A stretch of DNA of 64,000 nt from Patescibacteria group bacterium. Its GTDB lineage: Bacteria > Patescibacteriota > Minisyncoccia > UBA6257 > UBA9933. Below are positions 7,718 to 54,872 of this stretch, in pieces. The notes under the pieces were generated by a model, which was given only the letters and a program-made list of their open reading frames with translations, was not told where the DNA came from and did not search any database. Position 1 is the first letter of the stretch. Each line of letters starts with the position of its first letter. The stretch covers positions 7,626-71,625 of the forward strand of contig JBBTPY010000006.1 of the NCBI GenBank assembly GCA_038065955.1, read 5' to 3'. The translations under genes and the position numbers were made by a program.

Positions 7718-8554
7718 ATGATTAAGCTTAAAAAATTAAAAATTTTAATCGTCACTTTTTGTTTTTTATTTTTAATTTCAAATTTTATTTATGCGGCCGT
7801 TATTGATCCGATCGATCGCTGGGCTTGGAATGACATAATCGGCTGGATTGATTTTGGTTATCCGGCCGGTAATGTTAATGTTTATAGCAATCGTTTAGAA
7901 GGATATGCAAGTTCGTCGGTTGGTTTTATCGCTTTGAATTGTAATTCCACGCCTAATGGCAATATTTGCGGCGCGAGCGATTTTAAAGTTTCAAATGACG
8001 GCGCCGGCAATCTTTCGGGCTGGGCTTATAATGACAATATCGGCTGGATAAGTTTTGCTTCCACTACGCCGGTTGTTTATTCAGTTTCCATTGATTCGGG
8101 CGGCGATTTTCACGGCTGGGCTTGGAACGATATTATCGGCTGGATCAGTTTTAATTCTGCGGAAGGAGGAGGGAGCGTTAATTATAAAGTGAAAACTCTT
8201 TGGTCGGCGCAGGCGGCGACCGGCACTTTAACTTCCAGCGTTTTTGACGCTCAAGTTGCCGGCGGCGTGGCTATTAACACGATTATGTGGCAGGGGAGCA
8301 GAAACGGCGGAGCGGTGAAATTTCAGATCGCTTCTTCAAATAATTCCGCCGGTCCCTGGACTTACTACGGTCCCAATAACACGTCGCTTGACAACGACGT
8401 TTATTCTCCAACAGATTCAAATGCGCCTATTGAAATAAATCCGATTCAGCATAATAATAAAAGATATGTTCGTTATAAAGCGATTTTAGAATCCAATTTG
8501 GCGCAGACTCAAAGTCCGACAGTTAATGATATAATAATAAATTGGAGCCCGTAA
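7718..8554 (+). CDS. Secreted protein with Trp-rich internal repeats (possible pilus-associated or adhesin protein)
   Basis: Signal peptide, then four copies of a 'WAWNDIIGWI(D/S)F' module. Embedded in the pilus gene cluster. Confidence 0.4.
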   Translation: MIKLKKLKILIVTFCFLFLISNFIYAAVIDPIDRWAWNDIIGWIDFGYPAGNVNVYSNRLEGYASSSVGFIALNCNSTPNGNICGASDFKVSNDGAGNLSGWAYNDNIGWISFASTTPVVYSVSIDSGGDFHGWAWNDIIGWISFNSAEGGGSVNYKVKTLWSAQAATGTLTSSVFDAQVAGGVAINTIMWQGSRNGGAVKFQIASSNNSAGPWTYYGPNNTSLDNDVYSPTDSNAPIEINPIQHNNKRYVRYKAILESNLAQTQSPTVNDIIINWSP

Positions 8555-8563
8555 TTATTTAAT

Positions 8564-8971
8564 ATGTCAAAATTAAACAAAATTTTATTATTTTTTGTCT
8601 TTATATTATTAATGGCCCTGGGAGTCGTTTTATATTGGCAGAAAATCGGTTTTGAAAAACCTTATTACGCGGTTTATTTAAATACCGGCGACCTTTATTT
8701 CGGCAGATTAAATTATTTTTCAAATTCGTCCTTAAGCGATGTTTATTATATCCAAAGAAATCCGGAAGACCGGCAGAATCCTTTAAGTATTTCAAAATTT
8801 GAGAATTCTTTTTGGAAACCGGAAGGGAAGATTTATATCAACGATGATATGATTGTCTGGAAAGTCAGGTTAAAAAAAGACAGCGAGCTGTTGAATTATA
8901 TTAAAAATCCGCAGGCATTTCAGCAATTTCAACCCCAGCAACAGTCTCAATCAACTTCATCTCGGCAATGA
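8564..8971 (+). CDS. Small membrane-anchored protein, unknown function
   Basis: N-terminal transmembrane helix; Q-rich C-terminus; no recognisable catalytic motif. Confidence 0.3.
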   Translation: MSKLNKILLFFVFILLMALGVVLYWQKIGFEKPYYAVYLNTGDLYFGRLNYFSNSSLSDVYYIQRNPEDRQNPLSISKFENSFWKPEGKIYINDDMIVWKVRLKKDSELLNYIKNPQAFQQFQPQQQSQSTSSRQ

Positions 8972-10909: not shown

Positions 10910-13477
<2,568 letters not shown>

Positions 13478-25635: not shown

Positions 25636-26418
25636 ATGGCTACAAACCTATACAAAAAAATAAAGGAGTTGCGTGAGCAAAACAAATTTTCTCAAGAGTA
25701 TCTGGCGGAACAACTCAAGGTCTCCCGTCCTACTTATATGCAGGTTGAAAAGGGCGAGCGAGACATTACCGTACCGGAGGCAAGAAAGCTTGCTCTGGTT
25801 TTTGGCGTGAGTTTAGAAGATTTTCTCGGCGAAGAAGTTTCAGCGCTTCCCGATGTGGTTTTAAAGAAAGAAAAAGCCAAAGAGAAAGAAAGCGATATCC
25901 GCATTATTATGCCTCGAGCGGATGTAAAAAAGTTCAAAGAAGTGCTTCTCTATGTTTTAAGCAAGATTGGAGCAAAACCGAACATTGGAGAGACCGCCCT
26001 CTACAAACTTTTGTATTTTATTGACTTTGATTTCTATGAGAAGTTTGAAGAACAGCTTACCGGGGCGCGATACATAAAAAATCATTACGGCCCCACGCCG
26101 GTTGAATTCAAGAAGATCGTTGAAGGGATGGAGAAAAAAGGAGAGGTTGAGCGCGTTAAATCGAGTTACTTTCAGTACGACCAAAAAAAATATCTGCCGC
26201 GCAGAGAACCCGATCTAAAGAATCTCTCGGCGCAGGAAATTAAACACATTGACGAAGTTCTCGCCCGATTATCAGATAAGAACGCCAACGAGCTGTCCGC
26301 CTATTCGCATAGCGATGTGCCATGGAGAGTACACAAAGCTGGAGAGACGATCAGCTACGAAAGCGTATTTTACCGAGACGAGGATCACTCTGTAAGAAAT
26401 TACGACGATGAACTTTAG
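25636..26418 (+). CDS. HTH-XRE plus Panacea (DUF4065/SocA-like) domain antitoxin
   Basis: N-terminal XRE helix-turn-helix ('SQEYLAEQLKVSRPTYMQVEKGER'). C-terminal 'TALYKLLYFIDFDFYEKFEEQLTGARYIKNHYGPTP' matches the Panacea core. Confidence 0.6.
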   Translation: MATNLYKKIKELREQNKFSQEYLAEQLKVSRPTYMQVEKGERDITVPEARKLALVFGVSLEDFLGEEVSALPDVVLKKEKAKEKESDIRIIMPRADVKKFKEVLLYVLSKIGAKPNIGETALYKLLYFIDFDFYEKFEEQLTGARYIKNHYGPTPVEFKKIVEGMEKKGEVERVKSSYFQYDQKKYLPRREPDLKNLSAQEIKHIDEVLARLSDKNANELSAYSHSDVPWRVHKAGETISYESVFYRDEDHSVRNYDDEL

Positions 26419-31961: not shown

Positions 31962-32285
31962 ATGGAAACTAAAAATGTAAAATTCGTTGTTTTTGTTCCT
32001 CTCTCTCACGCTGATGCTGTGCGCCATGCTCTCGGCGAGGCCGGAGCGGGTAAAATCGGAAATTATGATTTCTGCTCGTTTTCTTCTCGTGGCACAGGTC
32101 GTTTTCGTGGAAATGAAAAAGCGAATCCTGTAATTGGTAAAGCGGGGAAATATGAAGCAGTCGAGGAAGAAAAAATTGAGGCGATTGTGCCGCGAGAAAT
32201 TTTGAAAGAGGTTATTGAAAAAGTAAAAAGCGTTCATCCATACGAGGAAGTCGCTTTTGATATTTATCCGTTGGAAACAATATGA
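31962..32285 (+). CDS. Small PII/CutA-like (ferredoxin-like fold) protein, function unknown
   Basis: 107 aa; 'GAGKIGNY', 'SRGTGRFRG' and C-terminal 'HPYEEVAFDIYPLE' resemble CutA/PII-like families. Weak assignment. Confidence 0.3.
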   Translation: METKNVKFVVFVPLSHADAVRHALGEAGAGKIGNYDFCSFSSRGTGRFRGNEKANPVIGKAGKYEAVEEEKIEAIVPREILKEVIEKVKSVHPYEEVAFDIYPLETI

Positions 32286-32911
32286 AAATTACAAAAAATA
32301 AAATTCAAGTACTATTAGTCCATGGTGGAATGACCTTCAAAAATGAGAAGGATTATTTACACTACTTAAAAACTAAAAAAGTAACGACAACGAAAAAAGT
32401 TTCTTGGACAGGAGGTTATTTAGAGAAAAGTTTAGGCAAAAGGTTTGAAATAATCTCGCCAAGAATGCCTTTGCAGGATTTTGCGAAGTACAGAGATTGG
32501 AAGATATTTTTTGAGAGATACTTATCACTTATCAAAAATAAATACATTTTGATTGGTTCGTCTTTAGGCGGAGTTTTCCTTGCAAAATATCTTTCCGAAA
32601 ATAAACTTCGCAAAAAGGCATTGTCGGTATATTTGGTTTGTCCACCTTTTGACAATACATTGCCAGGTGAAGATTTGGTCGGTGGCTTCACGCTCGGCAA
32701 TAATCTGTCGTTGATTGAGAAGAACTGCAAAAATCTCCATTTGTTATTTTCAAACGATGACGATGTTGTGCCCGCCGCTCATGCCGATAAATACAAGCGA
32801 AAATTGAAAAATGCCCATGTTGTGATTTACAAGAGCAAAGGCGGGCATTTCAACATCGCCAAATTTCCTGAAATAGTTAAGATGATTTTTGCAGATATTA
32901 AAAGAAACTAG
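32282..32911 (+). CDS. Alpha/beta-fold serine hydrolase (YdeN/RBBP9-like)
   Basis: 'VLLVHGG' N-terminal strand; nucleophile elbow 'IGSSLGG'; late 'GGHFN' His region. Confidence 0.5.
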   Translation: MKITKNKIQVLLVHGGMTFKNEKDYLHYLKTKKVTTTKKVSWTGGYLEKSLGKRFEIISPRMPLQDFAKYRDWKIFFERYLSLIKNKYILIGSSLGGVFLAKYLSENKLRKKALSVYLVCPPFDNTLPGEDLVGGFTLGNNLSLIEKNCKNLHLLFSNDDDVVPAAHADKYKRKLKNAHVVIYKSKGGHFNIAKFPEIVKMIFADIKRN

Positions 32912-33010
32912 CCGCCAATTTTTTCAAAAAAGAAAGCCGAAGCCCGTGCGGATTCCTCCCCAAACCCCTCCTCCGCGCGGGCGAGTCCGAATTCCGCACC
33001 CCGCCACCAT
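32909..33010. repeat. Partial copy (R orientation) of the GC-rich intergenic repeat family; begins at the stop codon of the upstream gene
   Basis: 'tagccgccaatttt...gcggattcctccccaaacccctcctccgcgcgggcg' aligns with 36676-36760. Confidence 0.6.
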
Positions 33011-33340: not shown

Positions 33341-34591
33341 TCAAAATCGCTTTTTTTCCTCAATATCTTTTTTCCCCGACATCAGATCGTTTTTCTTTGG
33401 CTGAAACTCCGGCAGTTCTAAATCGCCTTCAAGGTAAGCGTCCATCAGGCGATTTATTTTTGTCTTAATTTTTTCTAATTCTGTTTTAAGATTTTGAGCG
33501 AAAAGGTCAGATGAGTGGCGGGATTCTTTATTCTCATTTTCCAGTTTTGTCAAAAACTTTTCCCGCCACTCATCGGGCAAAGAAACTTTTTGACAAAGAT
33601 TTTTCACTTGTTCAGTTAAAACTTCTTCCCGCAAAAAGCGATTTTCAGTACACGAAATAGTTTTGCTCTTGTGGGTGCAACGATAATAAATAAATTTCAA
33701 ACCACTTTTCTTGATGTGTCGCTCGGCGGTTATGGCATATCCACATACCCCACAAGTAGCAAAACCTAAAAACTGAAAATTCTTTGGTCCTCGCTTTTTG
33801 CGGGGCTTCCCATTCTGAACAAGTGCATTTTGAATTTGGTCAAAAAGTTTCTTTGCAATCATTGGCTTATGCGAACCTTGATGCACCTCGCCACGATATT
33901 GAAAGTGTCCGTAGTAAAAAGGATTTTTCAAAATATGTTCAATACTGGCGAGGTGCAAAGGTTTACCTGTTTTGCCAACCAAGCCAAGAGAAAACATTTT
34001 GCGTTGAATAGCCGTGAGTGTGTATTGCCCCGAAGCAAAAGCCCCTAACGCTTCTTTTACTTTGCCAAAAGTTTTTCTATCCGGCTCAATCGTCCGCAAA
34101 CGAGGTTCGTTGAAATATCCTAAAGGGGCTTTTGCGGAAAGTTCACCACGGCGTATTTTTTGGCGAATACCACGCAAAATGTTTTCTCTTAAATTGTCGG
34201 TGTAATACTTTGCTTGTCCGAAGGCGACACTCAACATAAATTTTCCTTGCGGTGTCGCCTCGAACCAGAAAGTAGGGAATTTTAGCGCAACAATCTTTTG
34301 CGTATCCACCAAATAAATTACTCTGCCACCGTCTATGCTATTTCTCGCTAAACGGTCTGGATTCCACGCTAAAATTCCCTGTGCAGTGCCTTTTTCAATT
34401 TCGCCAAGCATTTCGTTGAAAACTACTCTACCCGGCTCTTTGGCGGTCTTGCTCTCGTAAAATTCTTTTTCAACGAAAAGATTATTTTGCTTGGCGAATT
34501 CCCGAAGCTCCGTCAATTGTGCCTCAATACTTAAAACTTGGCGTTCTTCGTCTTCACTTGATTTTCTACAATAGATAAAATATTTGATCAT
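33341..34591 (-). CDS. Large serine recombinase (resolvase/invertase catalytic domain, recombinase domain, zinc ribbon)
   Basis: N-terminal 'YCRKSSEDEERQVLSIEAQ' contains the catalytic Ser. C-terminal 'CGVCGYAITAERHIKKSGLKFIYYRCTHK' is the zinc ribbon of large serine recombinases. Confidence 0.85.
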   Translation of the reverse strand: MIKYFIYCRKSSEDEERQVLSIEAQLTELREFAKQNNLFVEKEFYESKTAKEPGRVVFNEMLGEIEKGTAQGILAWNPDRLARNSIDGGRVIYLVDTQKIVALKFPTFWFEATPQGKFMLSVAFGQAKYYTDNLRENILRGIRQKIRRGELSAKAPLGYFNEPRLRTIEPDRKTFGKVKEALGAFASGQYTLTAIQRKMFSLGLVGKTGKPLHLASIEHILKNPFYYGHFQYRGEVHQGSHKPMIAKKLFDQIQNALVQNGKPRKKRGPKNFQFLGFATCGVCGYAITAERHIKKSGLKFIYYRCTHKSKTISCTENRFLREEVLTEQVKNLCQKVSLPDEWREKFLTKLENENKESRHSSDLFAQNLKTELEKIKTKINRLMDAYLEGDLELPEFQPKKNDLMSGKKDIEEKKRF

Positions 34592-34799
34592 AGCTTCGGG
34601 AATTAAATTGATAAAGGCATTGCACTTACACCGACAATTTCTAAAAATCTCTCCTCATCGGCTCTTGCGCCTTTGGCGCAATCCAAACTTTGTTTGGGAA
34701 CCGCCGACTTTCGGCGGGAATTCTTTTGGCGGAATTCAAAACCCCCTGGAATTTCTTGGCGGAAACCAATGCCGAGGGGCGAAGCCCCGAGGCAACTTC

Positions 34800-35020
34800 T
34801 TCGGCAAATCAAATTTGGTGGTGTTTGTTTAAAAAAGTCAGAACCCATTTTGCAGAAAATCCCAACGAATGAAACGGAAACAATGCGGACTCGGCAGGGC
34901 AAACTATTTTTCTGGGGTTTTGGATTTGCCCTGCCTCGGCTGATTTCCCGCCCGCAGGAGGGGTCTGGGGAGGAATGCGGGCGGGTTTCGGACTGGGGGT
35001 TTTCGGAAATTCGGCGGCTA
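34800..35020. repeat. Left copy (L orientation) of a ~200-bp inverted repeat flanking the XRE-NDT-HD cassette
   Basis: Reverse complement of 34837-35020 aligns nearly base-for-base with 36676-36870. Contains a perfect 10-bp hairpin stem cccgcccgca/tgcgggcggg. Confidence 0.8.
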
Positions 35021-35101
35021 TAAAATAATTGAATAATTCTCTCATATTTGTTATTATAATACTGTCAGTTAAAACAAGCAACAGTATTATGTTATCAATA
35101 T

Positions 35102-35305
35102 ATGGAAACTAATTTATTAGGACAGAAAATAAAGAAGCTACGGACAAAACTTGGTCTTTCTCAAGACGATTTTGCTCGCAAGGCGGATGTTCCCTACACA
35201 ACGCTTACAAAGGTCGAAACAGGCGTTATAAAAAAACCTTCGGTTTTTATGGTGAGCAAAATCGCTAAAGCGCTTGATGTTAATATTGAAGAATTAATAA
35301 AATAA
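35102..35305 (+). CDS. XRE-family helix-turn-helix transcriptional regulator
   Basis: 'LGLSQDDFARKADVPYTTLTKVETG' HTH_3 pattern; 67 aa. Confidence 0.6.
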   Translation: METNLLGQKIKKLRTKLGLSQDDFARKADVPYTTLTKVETGVIKKPSVFMVSKIAKALDVNIEELIK

Positions 35306-35310
35306 ATATT

Positions 35311-35697
35311 ATGAAAACAGTAGTACTTTGCGGCAGTCGCCGTTTCAAACCGGAAATGAGAGAATTTGGCAAAAAGCTAAAAGAGCTTGGTGTCGTTGTG
35401 TTTGAACCTTATTTACATTCCGGTCAAGACGAATGGGCGAAACTGTCGGACGACTATAAAAAATTTGTTGCTCTCGGACTAACCCATGATCATTTTTACA
35501 AAATACAAATAGCTGATGTGGTTTTTATTTTTAATAAAGACGGTTACACTGGGAATAGTACGACTTTGGAAATCGGTTATGCGGTAGCGACAGGAAAACC
35601 AATTTATGCGTTAACAAGTGACGAAGAATTATGCCGCCATGTTTTATTTAGAGAGATAATTTCTTCACCCAAAGAACTTGTTAAAAAATTGAAATAA
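35311..35697 (+). CDS. Nucleoside 2-deoxyribosyltransferase-like (Rcl/DNPH1-type Rossmann) protein
   Basis: 'VVLCGSRRF' N-terminal strand and 'GYTGNSTTLEIGYAVATGKPIYAL' match the NDT-like 'G.S.GT..E.G.A.A.GKP' signature. Confidence 0.45.
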   Translation: MKTVVLCGSRRFKPEMREFGKKLKELGVVVFEPYLHSGQDEWAKLSDDYKKFVALGLTHDHFYKIQIADVVFIFNKDGYTGNSTTLEIGYAVATGKPIYALTSDEELCRHVLFREIISSPKELVKKLK

Positions 35698-35700
35698 ATT

Positions 35701-36678
35701 ATGAAATACACAGATAGAGTATATGGAAATTTTGAAATTACAGAACCAGTAATTTTGGAATTGATAAATTCCTCAACTTTTCAAAGATTAAAGGAAATAG
35801 ATCAAGCTGGATATTTCGAACCACATTTCCCAGGCACTGCACATTCGCGTTTTGAACATTCAATCGGTGACTATTTACTTTTGAAAATGTATGAGGCACC
35901 AATTGAAGAACAAATTGCTGGTCTTATTCATGATGTTTCTCACTCGGCATTTTCTCATTGTATAGATTATGTCTTAGATGCTGGCTCTGAAAAAGAACAT
36001 AATCATCAAGATAATGTTTTTGATGATTATGTTAGAAAATCAGAAATACCAGAAATTCTTAAAAAATATAATCTCGATTTGGATTATATCCTTGACGATA
36101 AAAATTTTCCTCTTAAAGAAAACGATTTGCCAGATTTATGTTCAGATAGAATAGATTATTCATTAAGAACAGCTACTGTTTTTAAGGAAATAGAAAACGG
36201 AAAATTTTTTATTTATAATCTCACAGCAAAAGACGGAAGGTGGATTTTTAAAGATTTTGAAAGTGCAAAAAAATATGCAGACTTATTTTTGAAACTCAAC
36301 ACTAACTATTATGCGGGATTACCTTCCGCTGTTATGTTCCGAACGGTTGGAGATTATTTGCGATATGCACTTTCAAAAGAATATATTTCTGAAACCGATT
36401 TATACACAACTGATAAAATTGTTCTTTCAAAAATAGAATTTCATATCACCGACGACTCAAAATTGAAATTGCTTTTTGAAAGAATGAATAATAAAATCGG
36501 TTTCAGAAATGACCCAGTTAATTATGACGGAAAAGTATTTTGTAAATCACGAGTGGTTGATCCTCTTTGTTGGCATAATGGGGAAATAAAAAGAGTTTCA
36601 GAAATAGAGCCGAGTTGGTCTGATATAATTACGCGGGAATCAAAACCAAAAGAATATTTTTTAAAATTTGATAGATAG
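35701..36678 (+). CDS. HD-superfamily metal-dependent phosphohydrolase
   Basis: 'HSRFEHSIGDYLL' (His) and 'LIHDVSHSAFSH' (HD) motifs. Confidence 0.7.
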   Translation: MKYTDRVYGNFEITEPVILELINSSTFQRLKEIDQAGYFEPHFPGTAHSRFEHSIGDYLLLKMYEAPIEEQIAGLIHDVSHSAFSHCIDYVLDAGSEKEHNHQDNVFDDYVRKSEIPEILKKYNLDLDYILDDKNFPLKENDLPDLCSDRIDYSLRTATVFKEIENGKFFIYNLTAKDGRWIFKDFESAKKYADLFLKLNTNYYAGLPSAVMFRTVGDYLRYALSKEYISETDLYTTDKIVLSKIEFHITDDSKLKLLFERMNNKIGFRNDPVNYDGKVFCKSRVVDPLCWHNGEIKRVSEIEPSWSDIITRESKPKEYFLKFDR

Positions 36679-36995
36679 CCGCCGAATTTCCGAAAACCCC
36701 CAGTCCGAAACCCGCCCGCATTCCTCCCCAGACCCCTCCTGCGGGCGGGAAATCAGCCGAGGCAGGGCGAATCCATATCCCCAGTCAAATGTTTCGCCCT
36801 GCCGAGTCCGCATTAGTTTTCAGGGTTCTCCGCAAAATGGGTTCTAACTTTTTCCAACAAACACCAAAATCAAGCCCCTTGATTTTGGGATATTCTAAAC
36901 TTTGCGCGAAATCATTTTGAGGGAAACTAGCCCGCCTCCGCTTCGCTCCGGCGGAACGCTCGGGCATTTCGGCGAAAAATTTTTGCGACTGACAA
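36676..36995. repeat. Right copy (R orientation) of the inverted repeat; starts at the HD-gene stop codon and extends ~320 bp
   Basis: 'tagccgccgaatttccgaaaacccccagtccgaaacccgcccgcattcctccccagacccctcctgcgggcggg...' is the reverse complement of 34837-35020. Its distal part (36900-36995) is mirrored at 39042-39130. Confidence 0.8.
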
Positions 36996-37069
36996 AATAG
37001 GTATTACTTCTATCTTATCATAATATCTAAACTTTGGATATTGATTTCTTGGATATATCTTGTTAATAT

Positions 37070-37291
37070 ATGGTTAAGTCAATCCAAACAAAGGAATATG
37101 CCTATTTTATTGAGCGGTTACGGAAGGCTCGACTAAGGGCTGGTCTGACACAGGCGCAGGTCGCGAAAAAGATAGGTCGCCCCCAATCGCATATATCAAA
37201 TGTTGAATCTGGACAGCAAATGGTTGATGTAGTCGAGCTTCAACGATTTGCAAAGATATACGGAAAAGATATTAACTTTTTCCTAAAATGA
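37070..37291 (+). CDS. XRE-family HTH regulator
   Basis: 'AGLTQAQVAKKIGRPQSHISNVESGQ' HTH_3 pattern; 73 aa. Confidence 0.6.
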   Translation: MVKSIQTKEYAYFIERLRKARLRAGLTQAQVAKKIGRPQSHISNVESGQQMVDVVELQRFAKIYGKDINFFLK

Positions 37292-37620
37292 AATCTGCCA
37301 AACTTATTTCAGTTTTACTTTCCTTTGTGATTATTGTTAGTGTATTCGGTGTTTTTGCTGCTCCCAACACAACAGAGGCGTTTGTCCAAAAATATGAATA
37401 TTCAGAATATGATCCGCCTGGTGTTTTCTCTGGAGTTTGGCATGGACTTCTTGCGCCATACTCGCTTGTTGCCCGTTGGTTTATGGACGACGGAGCGATG
37501 TACGCAGTACCGAATACTGGTTGGTTTTATGACGCAGGATTTTTGATTGGTATAGTCGGCTCGATTCCTATTGGTTGGGCTGCTGCTATAATTTCCACAA
37601 TTGGACATATCTTGTCTTAA
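37288..37620 (+). CDS. Small membrane protein, unknown
   Basis: N-terminal TM or signal segment plus C-terminal hydrophobic segment; start overlaps the upstream stop. Confidence 0.3.
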   Translation: MKSAKLISVLLSFVIIVSVFGVFAAPNTTEAFVQKYEYSEYDPPGVFSGVWHGLLAPYSLVARWFMDDGAMYAVPNTGWFYDAGFLIGIVGSIPIGWAAAIISTIGHILS

Positions 37621-37632
37621 TTTCTAAAACTT

Positions 37633-38115
37633 ATGAAAATTAAACTTATAATTGGAATTCTCGTCGTGCTGGTTTTAATCTTTGGTTGGATAGCTTTTTC
37701 TCCAGCTACTCAAGAATCGTCAGTCAAGAAAGCACATTTTGCTACAAAATTATCAGCATCAGGAAGTATCACCTGTACTTATCCTCAAATACTGCATGCC
37801 AGCTATCAATCCGGAGAAATAACGCATGAATTACCGAAGCCGGAGACAAACCCTATCATAATGACTTTTAGCGATATTGATTCTGAAGTTGCAAAAGTTA
37901 AGTTCATTGATGCAACGCAATCCATTTCAGAAGTTCCACTCGTGAAAGTTATTGATACAGTAGAAAAGTTGATGTTCCTCGAAGGAAACGGTGAGCCCTA
38001 TATAACTGTTCATACAATTTATAAGGAAGATGGCGTTGCAACCTATGAAAAATCAATGTCGCTATTAGGTATCCCAGTAGGTACGGTGGGAATGGGTAGT
38101 TGTGTCGATTATTGA
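37633..38115 (+). CDS. Secreted hypothetical protein
   Basis: Signal-peptide-like N-terminus 'MKIKLIIGILVVLVLIFGWIAFS'; no recognisable motif. Confidence 0.3.
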   Translation: MKIKLIIGILVVLVLIFGWIAFSPATQESSVKKAHFATKLSASGSITCTYPQILHASYQSGEITHELPKPETNPIIMTFSDIDSEVAKVKFIDATQSISEVPLVKVIDTVEKLMFLEGNGEPYITVHTIYKEDGVATYEKSMSLLGIPVGTVGMGSCVDY

Positions 38116-38180
38116 AGGATAAACCCACTACGTAGCTTTAACTTGTTCTTCATCGTCATATTTAGTATTATATAAGTGAT

Positions 38181-38672
38181 ATGTCCTTACACCGAAAAAA
38201 GTACCAAAATGCTGTTTTGTACTTATGCCGGAAGCTAAAAGGCGAGGTACGCGGCAAGAAAAAATTAGCGAAATTGCTTTATTTCGCGGATTTTGATTTG
38301 TACGAAAAAAGTCAGAAATCAATAACTGGCGATGTTTACTGTGCGCTCCCAATGGGGCCGGTTCCGGCAGCTTTGGAAGAAATCACAGCTGAAATGACAA
38401 AAAAGAAAATGCTTGGCGTTGAGCACATCGAAGAACGAGAGGGATACAATCCTACTGAAGTATATAAGTGTCTCATCGAACCCGATCTTTCTGTTTTTGA
38501 TGACGAAGAAAAGAAAATGCTCGATCGGATTGTTGTCAAATATGGTCATCTCAATGGCAAACAATTAGAAGAATTATCTCACGCCGAAGCACCATACATC
38601 GGTACGGAGTTACGAAAAGAAATTCCATACGAACTGGCTTTTTATCGTGGTACAGATTTTAGTGAAATATGA
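38181..38672 (+). CDS. Panacea (DUF4065) domain antitoxin-like protein
   Basis: 'LAKLLYFADFDLYEKSQKSITGDVYCALPMGPVPAAL' matches the Panacea core and is paralogous to the 25636 C-terminal domain. Confidence 0.55.
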   Translation: MSLHRKKYQNAVLYLCRKLKGEVRGKKKLAKLLYFADFDLYEKSQKSITGDVYCALPMGPVPAALEEITAEMTKKKMLGVEHIEEREGYNPTEVYKCLIEPDLSVFDDEEKKMLDRIVVKYGHLNGKQLEELSHAEAPYIGTELRKEIPYELAFYRGTDFSEI

Positions 38673-39040
38673 TTCAGTTTCTGTACCACGACGGCATTCA
38701 GAAAGAAATCGCCGCCCTTGATGAGCGGCGATTTCGTACTATACGCAGTGGTCTGTCTGCATTTGAGAGACTGTGTGAGGTGCAATTTAATCCGACAAAT
38801 CCGCGACAAATCATTGCGCCGGCTAAAATACACCGCATTACGCAGAATGATATTTGGACACTCTGGAAAACTGAACTCGTTGTACCTAATTCGGGTTTAC
38901 GCCCAAATCAATGGCCGCGAATGTGGTTTGTGGTGAAGGGCGCAATTATTGCTTTTTTGTGCATATCCTCTCATGTTGATAATTACAACGATGAGGATAT
39001 GAATCGTTTAGCTTTGTCGCGGGTGTCGGATTTCTTCTGA
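38669..39040 (+). CDS. Putative toxin partner of the Panacea protein (family unrecognised)
   Basis: Start overlaps the Panacea stop (ATGA coupling); 123 aa; C-terminal hydrophobic stretch. Confidence 0.3.
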   Translation: MIQFLYHDGIQKEIAALDERRFRTIRSGLSAFERLCEVQFNPTNPRQIIAPAKIHRITQNDIWTLWKTELVVPNSGLRPNQWPRMWFVVKGAIIAFLCISSHVDNYNDEDMNRLALSRVSDFF

Positions 39041-39041
39041 A

Positions 39042-39130
39042 ATGTCGCAAAAATTTTTCACCGAAATGCCCGAGCGTTCTGCTAGAGCGAAGTGGAGGCG
39101 GTTTAGTTCCTTTTTTGAATTTTTTAGGAG
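39042..39130. repeat. Partial L-orientation copy of the intergenic repeat family
   Basis: 'gtcgcaaaaatttttcaccgaaatgcccgagcgttctgctagagcgaagtggaggcgg' is ~90% identical to the reverse complement of 36921-36990. Confidence 0.7.
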
Positions 39131-53333: not shown

Positions 53334-54872
53334 TTATTTCCAAATCAAGCGGTCTCCTTCGGAGATAATCGTATCGGATTCAATAAAAAGGCCACATTCT
53401 TCATTTGCCGAAATCTGGCTGATTTCGCGCTTATGCTGTCTTAAACTGACGACTTTTCCAAATCCCGCTTTTTCATTATTTTTTATAATTTCAAATCGGG
53501 AATTATTTTTGATGACGCCGGAGAGCGCGCGGCCGCCGACAAGCTGTTCTTTATTTTTCCGGCTGAAAATTTTTAAGACTTCAAATTCGCCAAGCGGCTT
53601 CGGTTTTTCCAATAACTTAACTTCATTTTCCACGGCTTCTATCAATTCGTATATGATATTTGAGATAATGATTTTAATTTCCTGAATTTTAGCCAAATTT
53701 TCGGCGATTTTATTGACTTTAGTTCCAAATCCGATAATGAGCGCTTTGCCGGCAATAGCCGTTTTAATGTCACCGTCGGTTATTTCTCCGATTGATTCGT
53801 TTAAGATGTTTATTTTTACGCCTTCATGTTTAATGTTTTTAATAATTTCCGATAAAGTTTCAAGCGAGCCGGAAGTATCGGCTTTGATAACGAGATTTAA
53901 TATTATTTTCGAATTTTCACGAACTAGTTTAACGGCAGAATTGGAAATTTGCGTGATTGGCGACAGATTCGCGTCAATTTGCGAACCAGTGAAAAATTCT
54001 TCTCCGATTTGAGGTAAAGTTTCAAATCCTAAAATTATTGCCGGGCTTGATGGCGAAAGTTCATCAATAGTTTTGCCTAAAAAATTCGTTAAATTTTTAA
54101 TTTTTCCGACGGCGCTTGCCGTGAAGATTTTTTCGCCGGTTTTCAAAATGCCGTTTTCAATAATAACGCTGGCGACAATTCCGCGATTAGGGTTGATTTT
54201 GGTTTCAATAATAATGCCGCTGGCCGGGACATTGGAATCGTAAGTTAAATTTTCTAATTCCGCGGCAAGCAAAATTAAGTCCAAAAGTTCGTTAATGCCT
54301 TGGCCGGTTTTAGCGGAAATCGCCTGCCAGGAAATATTGCCGCCAAATCCTTCAAGTAAGATGCCGTTTGCCGTTAAATCCTGTTTTGTTTTTTCAATAT
54401 CGGCGCTCGGTTTGTCTATTTTATTAATGGCGACAATAAACGGCGTTTTGGCCGCATTGAGAATTTCAATTGATTCTTTAGTTTGCGGTTTGACGCCATC
54501 GTCAGCCGCTACGACTAAAATTGCCAAATCGGACACTTTGGCGCCTCGGGCGCGCATTTTTGAAAAGGCCTCGTGGCCGGGCGTGTCTATGAAAGTGATT
54601 TTCCTGCCTCCGGCAGGCGCGGAACTACGCGGACTTAACGCAGACCCACGCGGAAATTCTGCGTTGTTCTGCGTCTGTTCTGCGTCTATCCGCGATTCAT
54701 GCGAAGCATGAATAATCTCGTAGGCGCCAATGGATTGGGTAATGCCGCCGGCTTCTTTGGCCACAACGCCGGTTTTGCGGATATAATCCAAAAGACTGGT
54801 TTTTCCGTGGTCAACATGTCCCATTATAACAACAATCGGAGGGCGCGGTAATAAAGTTTGAGTTTTTTTCAT
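53334..54872 (-). CDS. infB: Translation initiation factor IF-2 (short form) with a repeat-derived in-frame insertion in the G domain
   Basis: 'GHVDHGKTSLLDYIRKT' (G1), 'DTPGHEAF' (G3), 'NKIDK' (G4). ~30 extra residues lie between 'GAYEI' and 'KITFIDTPGH'. Confidence 0.9.
   Translation of the reverse strand: MKKTQTLLPRPPIVVIMGHVDHGKTSLLDYIRKTGVVAKEAGGITQSIGAYEIIHASHESRIDAEQTQNNAEFPRGSALSPRSSAPAGGRKITFIDTPGHEAFSKMRARGAKVSDLAILVVAADDGVKPQTKESIEILNAAKTPFIVAINKIDKPSADIEKTKQDLTANGILLEGFGGNISWQAISAKTGQGINELLDLILLAAELENLTYDSNVPASGIIIETKINPNRGIVASVIIENGILKTGEKIFTASAVGKIKNLTNFLGKTIDELSPSSPAIILGFETLPQIGEEFFTGSQIDANLSPITQISNSAVKLVRENSKIILNLVIKADTSGSLETLSEIIKNIKHEGVKINILNESIGEITDGDIKTAIAGKALIIGFGTKVNKIAENLAKIQEIKIIISNIIYELIEAVENEVKLLEKPKPLGEFEVLKIFSRKNKEQLVGGRALSGVIKNNSRFEIIKNNEKAGFGKVVSLRQHKREISQISANEECGLFIESDTIISEGDRLIWK

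Follow-up and report, generated by a model that had tools for sequence, protein, structure and literature searches.

A mobile, inverted-repeat-bounded cassette of candidate-phyla bacteria carries an XRE-type regulator with divergent NDT/DNPH1-like and SAMHD1-like proteins

SAMHD1 and the bacterial dGTPases are established antiviral enzymes that act by depleting deoxynucleoside triphosphates (dNTPs), dGTPase defence being a bacterial form of dNTP-depletion defence, and in mammals SAMHD1, DCTPP1 and DNPH1 make up a network of nucleotide-pool sanitation. In the Z-genome phages, a dNTP phosphohydrolase (DutZ, DatZ or MazZ) is found beside DmtZ, a member of the NDT (nucleoside deoxyribosyltransferase) family which acts on deoxynucleoside monophosphates (dNMPs) (PMC12884076), and an NDT-like protein is known as the toxic effector of retron Ec86 (PMC13276650). 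Bacteria of the candidate phyla radiation (CPR, or Patescibacteria) are without known pathways of nucleotide biosynthesis (PMC12455944). Here, we describe an operon at positions 35102-36678 of a stretch of 64,000 nucleotides (nt), referred to as the window, from contig JBBTPY010000006.1 of a groundwater Patescibacteria group bacterium, in which genes of the NDT/DNPH1 superfamily and of the HD-domain superfamily stand behind a small XRE-family regulator, between two long inverted repeats. This cassette is accessory and horizontally mobile among CPR bacteria, across candidate phyla. The NDT-like and HD proteins are new, divergent members of known superfamilies, and their combination, like the element which carries it, represents a new variant and not a new kind; nevertheless, the two genes are not a conserved system, but exchangeable modules of a combinatorial cassette family. 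Loci from other genomes and metagenomes with which it was compared are designated L followed by a number.

All three genes of the operon lie on the forward strand. The first (35102..35305) encodes an XRE-family helix-turn-helix (HTH) regulator of 67 amino acids (aa) which comprises the HTH domain only (Pfam HTH_3, E=3.6e-16), the second (35311..35697) a 128-aa protein of the NDT/DNPH1 superfamily with a match to PF05014, predicted to be an N-glycosidase or (phospho)deoxyribosyltransferase, and the third (35701..36678) a 325-aa protein which, as judged by its sequence, fold and residues, is a short-form homologue of the SAMHD1/EF1143-type HD-domain (d)NTP triphosphohydrolases. Since the intergenic gaps are as small as 5 nt (XRE-NDT) and 3 nt (NDT-HD), the genes form one operon, and because independent assemblies from ENA, JGI, NCBI and Logan contain the three-gene cassette, an assembly artefact is ruled out. 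A sequence-only reading of the window had proposed the same three open reading frames (ORFs), an XRE, an NDT-like and an HD assignment for them, an operon behind the 67-aa regulator and a mobile context bounded by inverted repeats; Pfam, Protein Data Bank (PDB) searches and fold comparison bear out the assignments and the operon, and the context is confirmed by repeats of 203 nt, shared tips and five different flanks. Upstream of the operon lies a promoter-like site (TTGAAT-17-TATTAT with TG, 35029-35057, in a forward-strand feature spanning 35029..35098). It shares positions with an 18-nt inverted repeat (35048-35065 / 35081-35098, forward strand), a putative operator, and the XRE protein probably represses the operon at this palindrome (35048-35098). 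In PADLOC, the regulator matches only generic HTH and control-protein models, and resembles the control proteins of restriction-modification (R-M) systems and capH, while NCBIfam gives weak similarity to antitoxins of the HipB/MqsA type. Its identity drops to 34-61% ahead of NDT genes that are 84-97% identical, so that the regulator itself is an exchangeable module.

The cassette is delimited by two long terminal inverted repeats (IRs). The left repeat (IR-L, 34816..35021, forward strand) has a GC content of 52%, contains two long hairpins and has the outer terminus 5'-TGGTGGTGT, and the right repeat (IR-R, 36675..36866, reverse strand) begins inside the stop codon of the HD gene and has the outer terminus ...AACAAACACCA. 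Aligned between 34819-35021 and 36675-36866, they are 86.7% identical over 203 nt, including a 140-nt core at 94%, and their GC content lies 11-15 points above the window average. XRE, NDT and HD are the only ORFs between them, and no transposase is encoded inside. L021, L110 and L085 have kept the TGGTGGTGT tip, beyond which no homology to other genomes extends; at the opposite end, homology stops at the outer base of AACAAACACCA against five unrelated flanks, including those of L005, L020/L071 and L024, and the neighbours of the close orthologues differ among L005, L020, L021, L022 and L028. From repeat to repeat, the cassette shares 90% nucleotide identity with its counterpart on a Kaiserbacteria contig; the identity to a second Hainich context is 98%, and cassettes identical to it are present on a 695-kb contig as well as on contigs from the Hainich aquifer. 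The HD protein has over 100 related protein clusters at 76-94% identity (1748 matches overall), and the NDT-like protein a similar number at 76-100% (827 matches). Among the named sources are Kaiserbacteria and Saccharibacteria, as well as Uhr-, Magasanik-, Zambryski-, Ryan-, Portnoy-, Roizman- and Blackburnbacteria, in the last seven of which the aa identity is 82-93%. They extend over separate candidate phyla within the Parcubacteria and the Microgenomates, and the synonymous divergence (dS) from the copies in Kaiser-, Uhr-, Zambryski- and Ryanbacteria is only 0.4-0.6. For the housekeeping gene UppS of the same genome, used as a control, the closest relatives are 82% and 78% identical, followed by others at 62-75%. 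The variable loci, the conserved tips and a cross-phylum identity above that of UppS show that the cargo is accessory and mobile, and is not housekeeping at a core locus.

Sibling cassettes of the order XRE-NDT-Nudix-NDT2, where NDT2 is a second NDT-like paralogue, are bounded by still longer IRs, namely 353 nt at 100% identity in L085 (5356-5708 / 8486-8838) and 425 nt at 94% in L089 (5290-5714 / 7891-8315). L085 shares the window tip TGGTGGTGT although its repeats are otherwise divergent, and L089 carries the diverged subterminal motif CCAACAAATGCCGA in place of the window's CCAACAAACACCA, its repeat extending about 25 nt further out. The perfect identity of the two L085 repeats points to a recent origin or to continuing homogenisation, by inversion or gene conversion, for instance, and the L089 cassette abuts an apparent 3' end of a tRNA gene. 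A candidate target-site duplication was found in L085 (TTTCGTT ... TTCCGTT, 6 of 7 bases of a possible 7-bp duplication), and in the window only partial matches of the TCAA/AAATCAA type were seen, which are unconvincing. No empty insertion site was found; the contigs with the flanking hydrolase all carry the recombinase described below and assemblies break at the repeat. The repeats have no Rfam match at gathering or E-value thresholds, and fold modestly better than shuffled sequences (z -2.7 and -1.1). A literature search returned no description in CPR of a long, hairpin-rich IR element (200-425 nt) next to a large serine recombinase, and to our knowledge such an element is undescribed in these bacteria.

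The HD protein clearly belongs to the SAMHD1/EF1143 (COG1078) branch, as indicated by its sequence and by its model. Its match to the Pfam HD family is weak and below the cut-off (E=0.003), and phmmer against PDB sequences gives the Aquifex protein 2hek (7e-14), SAMHD1 (1e-12) and EF1143, the Aquifex protein also being found in a profile search of the same sequences (2e-14). The AlphaFold2 (AF2) model (pLDDT 83.7, pTM 0.83) is matched by Foldseek to EF1143 with bound dGTP/dATP (3irh, E=1.4e-11, TM 0.73-0.75), and further to 2hek, 2q14/BT4208 and SAMHD1. Across 41 homologues, R50 and H53 in RFEHS, H77, D78, H81 and H86 in HDVSHSAFSH, and D149, R150, D152 and Y153 in DRIDY are invariant, and H102 is nearly so. 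The metal ligands H53, H77, D78 and D152 are thus all kept and align with the family motifs, and the segment 'ekehnHqd' aligns with 'ekkwkHeq', its His being equivalent to H233 of SAMHD1; for R50, H81, H86 and H102 we assume the catalytic roles given in the SAMHD1 literature. At the counterparts of the SAMHD1 allosteric residues, the protein has N23/Q28/K31 instead of D/Q/R. With 325 aa against about 450, it falls 100-130 residues short of EF1143 or of the catalytic core of SAMHD1. A ratio of nonsynonymous to synonymous substitution (dN/dS) of 0.08-0.10 indicates strong purifying selection, and the GC content of the gene, 30.7% against 40.9% for the window, is about 10 points lower. From fold and residues, the protein is predicted to cut (d)NTPs into nucleoside and triphosphate.

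The NDT-like protein, which contains GYTGNSTTLEIGYAVATGKPIYAL, matches PF05014 over residues 6-106 with E=3.7e-8 and 33.9 bits, the cut-off being 28.8 bits. E87 is invariant in 40 homologues, sits in an 'LEIG' context and aligns with the Glu of 'WELG' in the NDT structure 6evs, and C7, G8, S9, R10 and D60 are likewise invariant. In an hhalign comparison with human DNPH1, E87 stands opposite E104, CGSRRF opposite CGSIRG and V5 opposite Y24, and the CGS-R-R motif resembles the 'CGSIRGG' of DNPH1. The invariant D60 and the nearly invariant H61 both fall in the segment of the triad Asp/Asn, where hhalign pairs D60 with E78 and H61 with D80, with a gap. No acidic residue stands six positions ahead of E87, as is the case in phosphate-accepting hydrolases. 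Members of the superfamily which lack this residue and possess a DNPH1-like motif go with 5'-phosphorylated substrates (PMC12884076). Because the CGS-R-R motif is DNPH1-like and the acidic residue is absent, a dNMP-type substrate is proposed, and the enzyme is predicted to break or exchange the base-sugar bond, most likely that of 5'-phosphorylated deoxynucleotides. With dN/dS at 0.02-0.04, the gene is under strong purifying selection, and this protein and the HD protein both look catalytically active from their residues. A search of 1.84 billion representatives yielded 4671 NDT-like clusters. Among these, many proteins of 200-300 aa match the profile twice and look like tandem NDT-NDT proteins, as in L143, and ten long ones that were checked comprised one NeuB fusion, proteins with DUF4406 or PF05014 matches, or proteins with no Pfam match, so that domain fusions were uninformative as a clue to function.

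The distribution of the two genes shows that each is commonly found in the absence of the other. Of 68 metagenome loci that are anchored on NDT and extend far enough beyond it downstream, 23 have a Nudix hydrolase gene next on the same strand, 4 an HD gene, 18 some other gene and 22 none, and tblastn detects HD downstream of NDT in 7 of the 68. Conversely, only 4 of 50 HD-anchored genome loci have an intact NDT gene upstream. The Nudix partners form two subfamilies, are usually followed by NDT2 and, with all NCBIfam matches far below cut-off, were not assigned to a named subfamily. HD genes occur in other cassettes, such as XRE-Mrr-HD (L057), XRE-219aa-HD (L029), ASCH-134aa-HD (L013) and LAGLIDADG...HD-MGMT-like (L025), and also alone among housekeeping genes, while NDT genes lack the XRE gene in most loci. 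Across loci, the alternative partners are thus Nudix, ASCH and MGMT-like proteins and Mrr. Remnants of NDT upstream of an intact HD gene (L011, L030, L052) and of HD downstream of an intact NDT gene (L080) indicate that either gene can be lost. These observations go against the suggestion of the sequence-only reading that a nucleotide-cleaving enzyme pair acts here as a system, since the two are mostly apart, Nudix is the commoner partner of NDT and either gene decays alone. Nevertheless, the juxtaposition is not pure chance, because NDT and HD adjoin each other in either order at deeply diverged loci (HD is 62% identical in the ASCH-HD-NDT of L055 and 58% in the ASCH..NDT-HD of L132) and because the usual partners of NDT are also nucleotide phosphohydrolases. 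The literature yielded no paper on modules that join NDT with HD or with Nudix, whether in CPR or in a defence role.

Beyond the cassettes, the neighbourhood of the family is mostly one of housekeeping genes. Around 130 loci, represented by 144 neighbouring proteins, these include H+-PPase, NrdD, enolase, Hsp70, tRNA synthetases, DnaB and Mur ligases; in raw counts, only a handful of the 144 have a match among defence models, chiefly as generic methylases or helicases of the UvrD type, and some loci lie in islands, as in L013 (EcoRI-type methylase, GmrSD, Fic) and L057. Neither enzyme has a match in PADLOC-DB v2 at E<=0.01, so that a known defence system was rejected, and neither matches NCBIfam. 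Among IMG/VR viral contigs there are no close relatives of HD and a single NDT match at 37% identity, and PHROGs matches of the cassette enzymes are negligible; on these two grounds, a viral origin of the enzymes was also rejected. More distant family members (52-65% identity) adjoin the rpsL-rpsG (S12/S7) operon in several lineages, and hence the family comprises core-locus versions and a mobilised subfamily. The genes at these sites are NDT-like, including a 286-aa NDT-NDT2 fusion, as well as HD genes at 52-64% (L143-L146, L149, L047, L062), and at some of them a pair of small DUF4258/DUF2283-like genes then follows.

What the two enzymes do for their hosts can be stated with less confidence. 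We tentatively favour, at a little under an even chance, a repressor-controlled mobile module which edits or sanitises the scavenged deoxynucleotide pool. The promoter overlapped by the palindrome would be kept off by the XRE protein and, when released, would drive both enzymes, of which HD would cut (d)NTPs and the NDT-like enzyme would cleave or exchange the base of dNMPs. They would work in parallel on different phosphorylation states, and not as an obligate couple, removing surplus or non-canonical nucleotides from the scavenged pool, and restriction of phage replication might be a side-effect or secondary use. The same logic would extend to the cassette family as a whole, that is, to XRE-NDT-HD, XRE-NDT-Nudix-NDT2, XRE-Mrr-HD and ASCH-HD-NDT. 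Sanitation is favoured because CPR bacteria lack known pathways of nucleotide synthesis and because the partners Nudix, ASCH, MGMT-like and Mrr handle modified bases or nucleotides. The strong purifying selection, the largely housekeeping neighbourhood, the distant members beside rpsL-rpsG and the precedent of the Z-genome gene pairs also speak for it.

Several points weigh against this interpretation. The sanitation role is drawn from gene associations, and the identity to characterised enzymes is low, at 17-21% for HD and, for NDT, about 29% over 93 columns with an hhalign probability of only 20%. The NDT-family triad includes a Tyr (Y7 in NDT, Y24 in DNPH1, Y6 in DmtZ; PMC12884076), which in the cassette protein is absent and replaced by V5, a position occupied nearly invariantly by Val or Ile in its family, so that the chemistry may differ from that of DNPH1 and NDT. 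The AF2 model of this protein is of low confidence (pLDDT 69.5), Foldseek places DNPH1 entries near the top without significance (E=0.012, TM 0.4), and a profile search of PDB sequences finds no significant match to any solved structure; the family assignment consequently comes from Pfam and the motif alignment. Profile and structure searches agree with the earlier assignments for HD, with its SAMHD1/EF1143 matches, and for NDT through PF05014, and the catalytic residues are all intact in HD whereas NDT keeps the nucleophile Glu and has lost the Tyr. Finally, a repressor-controlled mobile cassette of 2 kb, beside a toxin-antitoxin cassette and a recombinase, would be an unusual setting for a metabolic function, and the Mrr restriction nuclease in the NDT slot of L057 points to conflict functions.

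The main rival to pool sanitation, which we regard as unlikely though still to be taken seriously, is a dedicated anti-phage or anti-plasmid system, whereby XRE would hold the operon low until infection or de-repression, and the SAMHD1-like and DNPH1-like enzymes would then destroy dNTPs and dNMPs, or phage-type modified nucleotides, and starve phage DNA synthesis. The mobile, inter-phylum and patchy distribution would fit, as would the similarity of XRE to R-M control proteins and capH, the adjoining SocA/Panacea antitoxin-type cassette with the recombinase next door, the sharing of an operon by HD and a type IV restriction nuclease in XRE-Mrr-HD, and the L013 island with its methylase, GmrSD and Fic. 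Precedents exist in SAMHD1 and the dGTPases. A further one is the NDT-like effector of retron Ec86 (PMC13276650). However, PADLOC recognises neither enzyme and few defence models occur among the 144 neighbouring proteins, NDT and HD are usually apart and carry no domain for sensing or regulation, the dN/dS ratios are very low (0.02-0.1), distant relatives stand beside the S12/S7 operon, and the absence of close relatives from viral contigs means that there is no sign of exchange between phage and host. The view that a defence role was plausible, but unproven, accordingly stands, and such a role is no better supported than pool sanitation or salvage. A more far-reaching form of the proposal, which we consider improbable, is that XRE-NDT-HD and its siblings would be an undescribed anti-phage family destroying dNTPs through a minimal SAMHD1-like enzyme and dNMPs through a Tyr-less DNPH1-like enzyme, on an integron- or shufflon-like, CPR-specific IR platform that is associated with a serine recombinase and exchanged between candidate phyla.

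More doubtful still is the view that the two genes are functionally unrelated passengers brought into one cassette by recombination, with no joint function. The fact that NDT loci are mostly without HD, as HD loci are without NDT, agrees with it, and so do the remnants (L011, L030 and L052 for NDT, L080 for HD), which place breakpoints at gene borders and reveal independent loss, together with the separate swapping of XRE. Against it, NDT and HD have been juxtaposed at least 3 times independently, in both orders, in different subfamilies and at 58-62% HD identity, and the alternative Nudix partners of NDT, in two subfamilies, are nucleotide phosphohydrolases as well, which suggests a shared biochemical theme.

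A toxin-antitoxin or addiction module, in which one toxic enzyme would be neutralised by XRE or by the other enzyme, is suggested by the small mobile operon led by an HTH protein, by the known toxicity of NDT-like and NAD- or nucleotide-cleaving enzymes and by the weak HipB/MqsA-type similarity of XRE, but was rejected as very unlikely on the co-occurrence data, as NDT, HD and XRE each occur without the others: NDT has no or an unrelated same-strand neighbour in 40 of the 68 loci and mostly no XRE, HD stands alone among housekeeping genes, loss is tolerated in both directions, and XRE is merely a 67-aa DNA-binding domain. The view that these are ordinary salvage genes of a housekeeping kind, passed on vertically at a core locus, for which the dependence of CPR on salvage, the distant members beside rpsL-rpsG and the strong purifying selection might speak, has an equally slight probability and is refuted for this cassette lineage, since the close orthologues occupy another locus in each lineage, flanked by the conserved ends of the repeats, with 82-94% identity across candidate phyla against 62-82% for UppS relatives, a dS of 0.4-0.6 and an anomalous GC content; a core-locus origin therefore fails for the close orthologues and holds in part for the relatives at 52-65%.

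The gene to the left of the cassette encodes a large serine recombinase of 416 aa (33341..34591, reverse strand; Resolvase, Recombinase and Zn_ribbon_recom domains), which lies outside IR-L and is not cargo. It is transcribed away from IR-L, and the same layout is found in L021, L073, L085 and L110, whose recombinases are 47-86% identical; where the repeat was mapped (the window, L021, L085 and L110), the recombinase is located 130-230 nt outside the tip of the left repeat. It could serve to invert, excise or integrate the cassette. A paper on small serine recombinases as defence markers was set aside, as it concerns small and not large recombinases. In L021, a 124-nt stretch equal to window positions 34698-34821 flanks the recombinase gene in inverted copies. 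In the sister strains L002 and L003, the recombinase ORF is broken, with piecemeal matches at 64-73% aa identity, and identity is 100% over the neighbouring cassette and the genes downstream; the broken gene could reflect decay, allele replacement or mixed-strain assembly.

Further to the left, the inner ~70 nt of the repeat recur as a single isolated copy, a GC-rich hairpin element located immediately after the stop codon of a serine-hydrolase gene (32909..32980, forward strand). Its form is CCCGCCCGCA-N19-TGCGGGCGGG, identical to the inner cassette repeat, and it is also found after the stop codons of unrelated genes in L013 (6976-7038), L057, L085, L088 and L101. It matches no Rfam family, and may be a cassette 3'-end or a recombination element. 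A 107-aa gene left of the island (window 31962-32285) has copies of 85% nucleotide identity at L085 7653-7937 and L101 2062-2349, where they are part of NDT-Nudix cassettes and are followed by NTP_transf_6 (not a serine hydrolase) and the same hairpin element. From these copies, the mobile region of the window may extend to the left past the recombinase.

On the other side, a second IR-bounded cassette (36925-39108) starts 58 nt past the first, with repeats of 65 nt at 89% identity (36925-36989 / 39044-39108). It contains a second XRE gene (XRE2, 37070-37291), genes for small proteins at 37288-37620 (with a match to phrog_30702) and 37633-38115, a SocA/Panacea antitoxin-type gene (38181-38672; PF13274, 1.6e-22) and, overlapping the latter, a 123-aa ORF (38669-39040) that has no family match and is a putative toxin. 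The window has another SocA/Panacea paralogue at 25927-26391, which is 32% identical to that of the second cassette; in the sister strains L152 and L153, its counterpart encodes HTH_3 and SocA fused in one 260-aa protein, and a 114-aa ORF comes next. Elsewhere in the otherwise AT-rich window, GC-rich direct repeats of the GCGCGGAACnnCGCGGA type occur at 11615-11656, 11796-11837 and 54617-54658, and may represent another dispersed repeat family.

For CPR bacteria, which must live on scavenged nucleotides, the balancing and cleaning of the resulting pool, and resistance to phages, are questions of interest. The cassettes indicate that a minimal SAMHD1-type enzyme and one of the DNPH1 type pass from one candidate phylum to another on small modules with a probable repressor, under very strong purifying selection. 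If the sanitation reading is true, they would parallel, in bacteria, the SAMHD1/DCTPP1/DNPH1 network of mammals, and if dNTPs are depleted upon infection, they would constitute a new compact defence system. The points of greatest interest are the substrate range of both enzymes and the nature of the long-IR cassette platform associated with a serine recombinase.

Compared with known systems, the platform is nearest to mobile insertion cassettes and non-autonomous transposons, with which it shares terminal IRs with conserved tips, the lack of an internal transposase, variable cargo, many contexts and a divergently transcribed site-specific recombinase alongside, but from which it differs in its very long (200-425 nt), hairpin-rich repeats and its large serine recombinase neighbour. 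Integron cassettes, in contrast, depend on the tyrosine recombinase IntI and direct attC sites, where a serine recombinase and inverted repeats are present here, and transposons possess a DDE transposase in place of the large serine recombinase. The HD protein has the whole-length fold of the SAMHD1/EF1143/TT1383-type dNTPases (COG1078) and their RFEHS, HDxxHxxFSH and DRxDY motifs, as well as the conserved N-terminal 'QRL..I.Q.G' segment. It is, however, shorter, only 17-21% identical and on a mobile cassette, its allosteric counterparts differ, and its activity is a prediction. The NDT-like protein has the nucleophile Glu, the CGS-R-R motif and the uncharged residue six positions before the Glu in common with the DNPH1/Rcl dNMP N-glycosidases and NDTs (PF05014), and departs from them in the Val/Ile at the triad Tyr and in the ambiguous position of the Asp. 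Defence by dNTP depletion (dGTPase, dCTP deaminase) and retron Ec86 involve the same HD and NDT superfamilies and would have a target in common with the cassette, in the pool of deoxynucleotides or NAD, but the cassette genes are far smaller, encode single-domain proteins and have no PADLOC match; no retron reverse transcriptase or non-coding RNA is located near the cassette, and no clear association of the cassette family with defence islands was found among the 144 neighbour representatives. The mammalian sanitation network of SAMHD1, DCTPP1 and DNPH1 is also close in logic. The Z-genome genes differ in that they are phage genes serving 2-aminoadenine DNA synthesis, whereas the cassette genes are cellular and absent from IMG/VR, with neither PurZ nor DpoZ among the annotated neighbours of cassette loci; DatZ is of the small type and the HD protein here of the SAMHD1 type, and DmtZ, which performs hydrolysis or phosphodeoxyribosyl transfer on dNMPs, has the full Tyr/Asn/Glu triad, unlike the cassette NDT. 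Nevertheless, the combination of DutZ, DatZ or MazZ with DmtZ offers the closest logic described to date, as it follows the same pairing logic as the NDT-Nudix and NDT-HD cassettes reported here.

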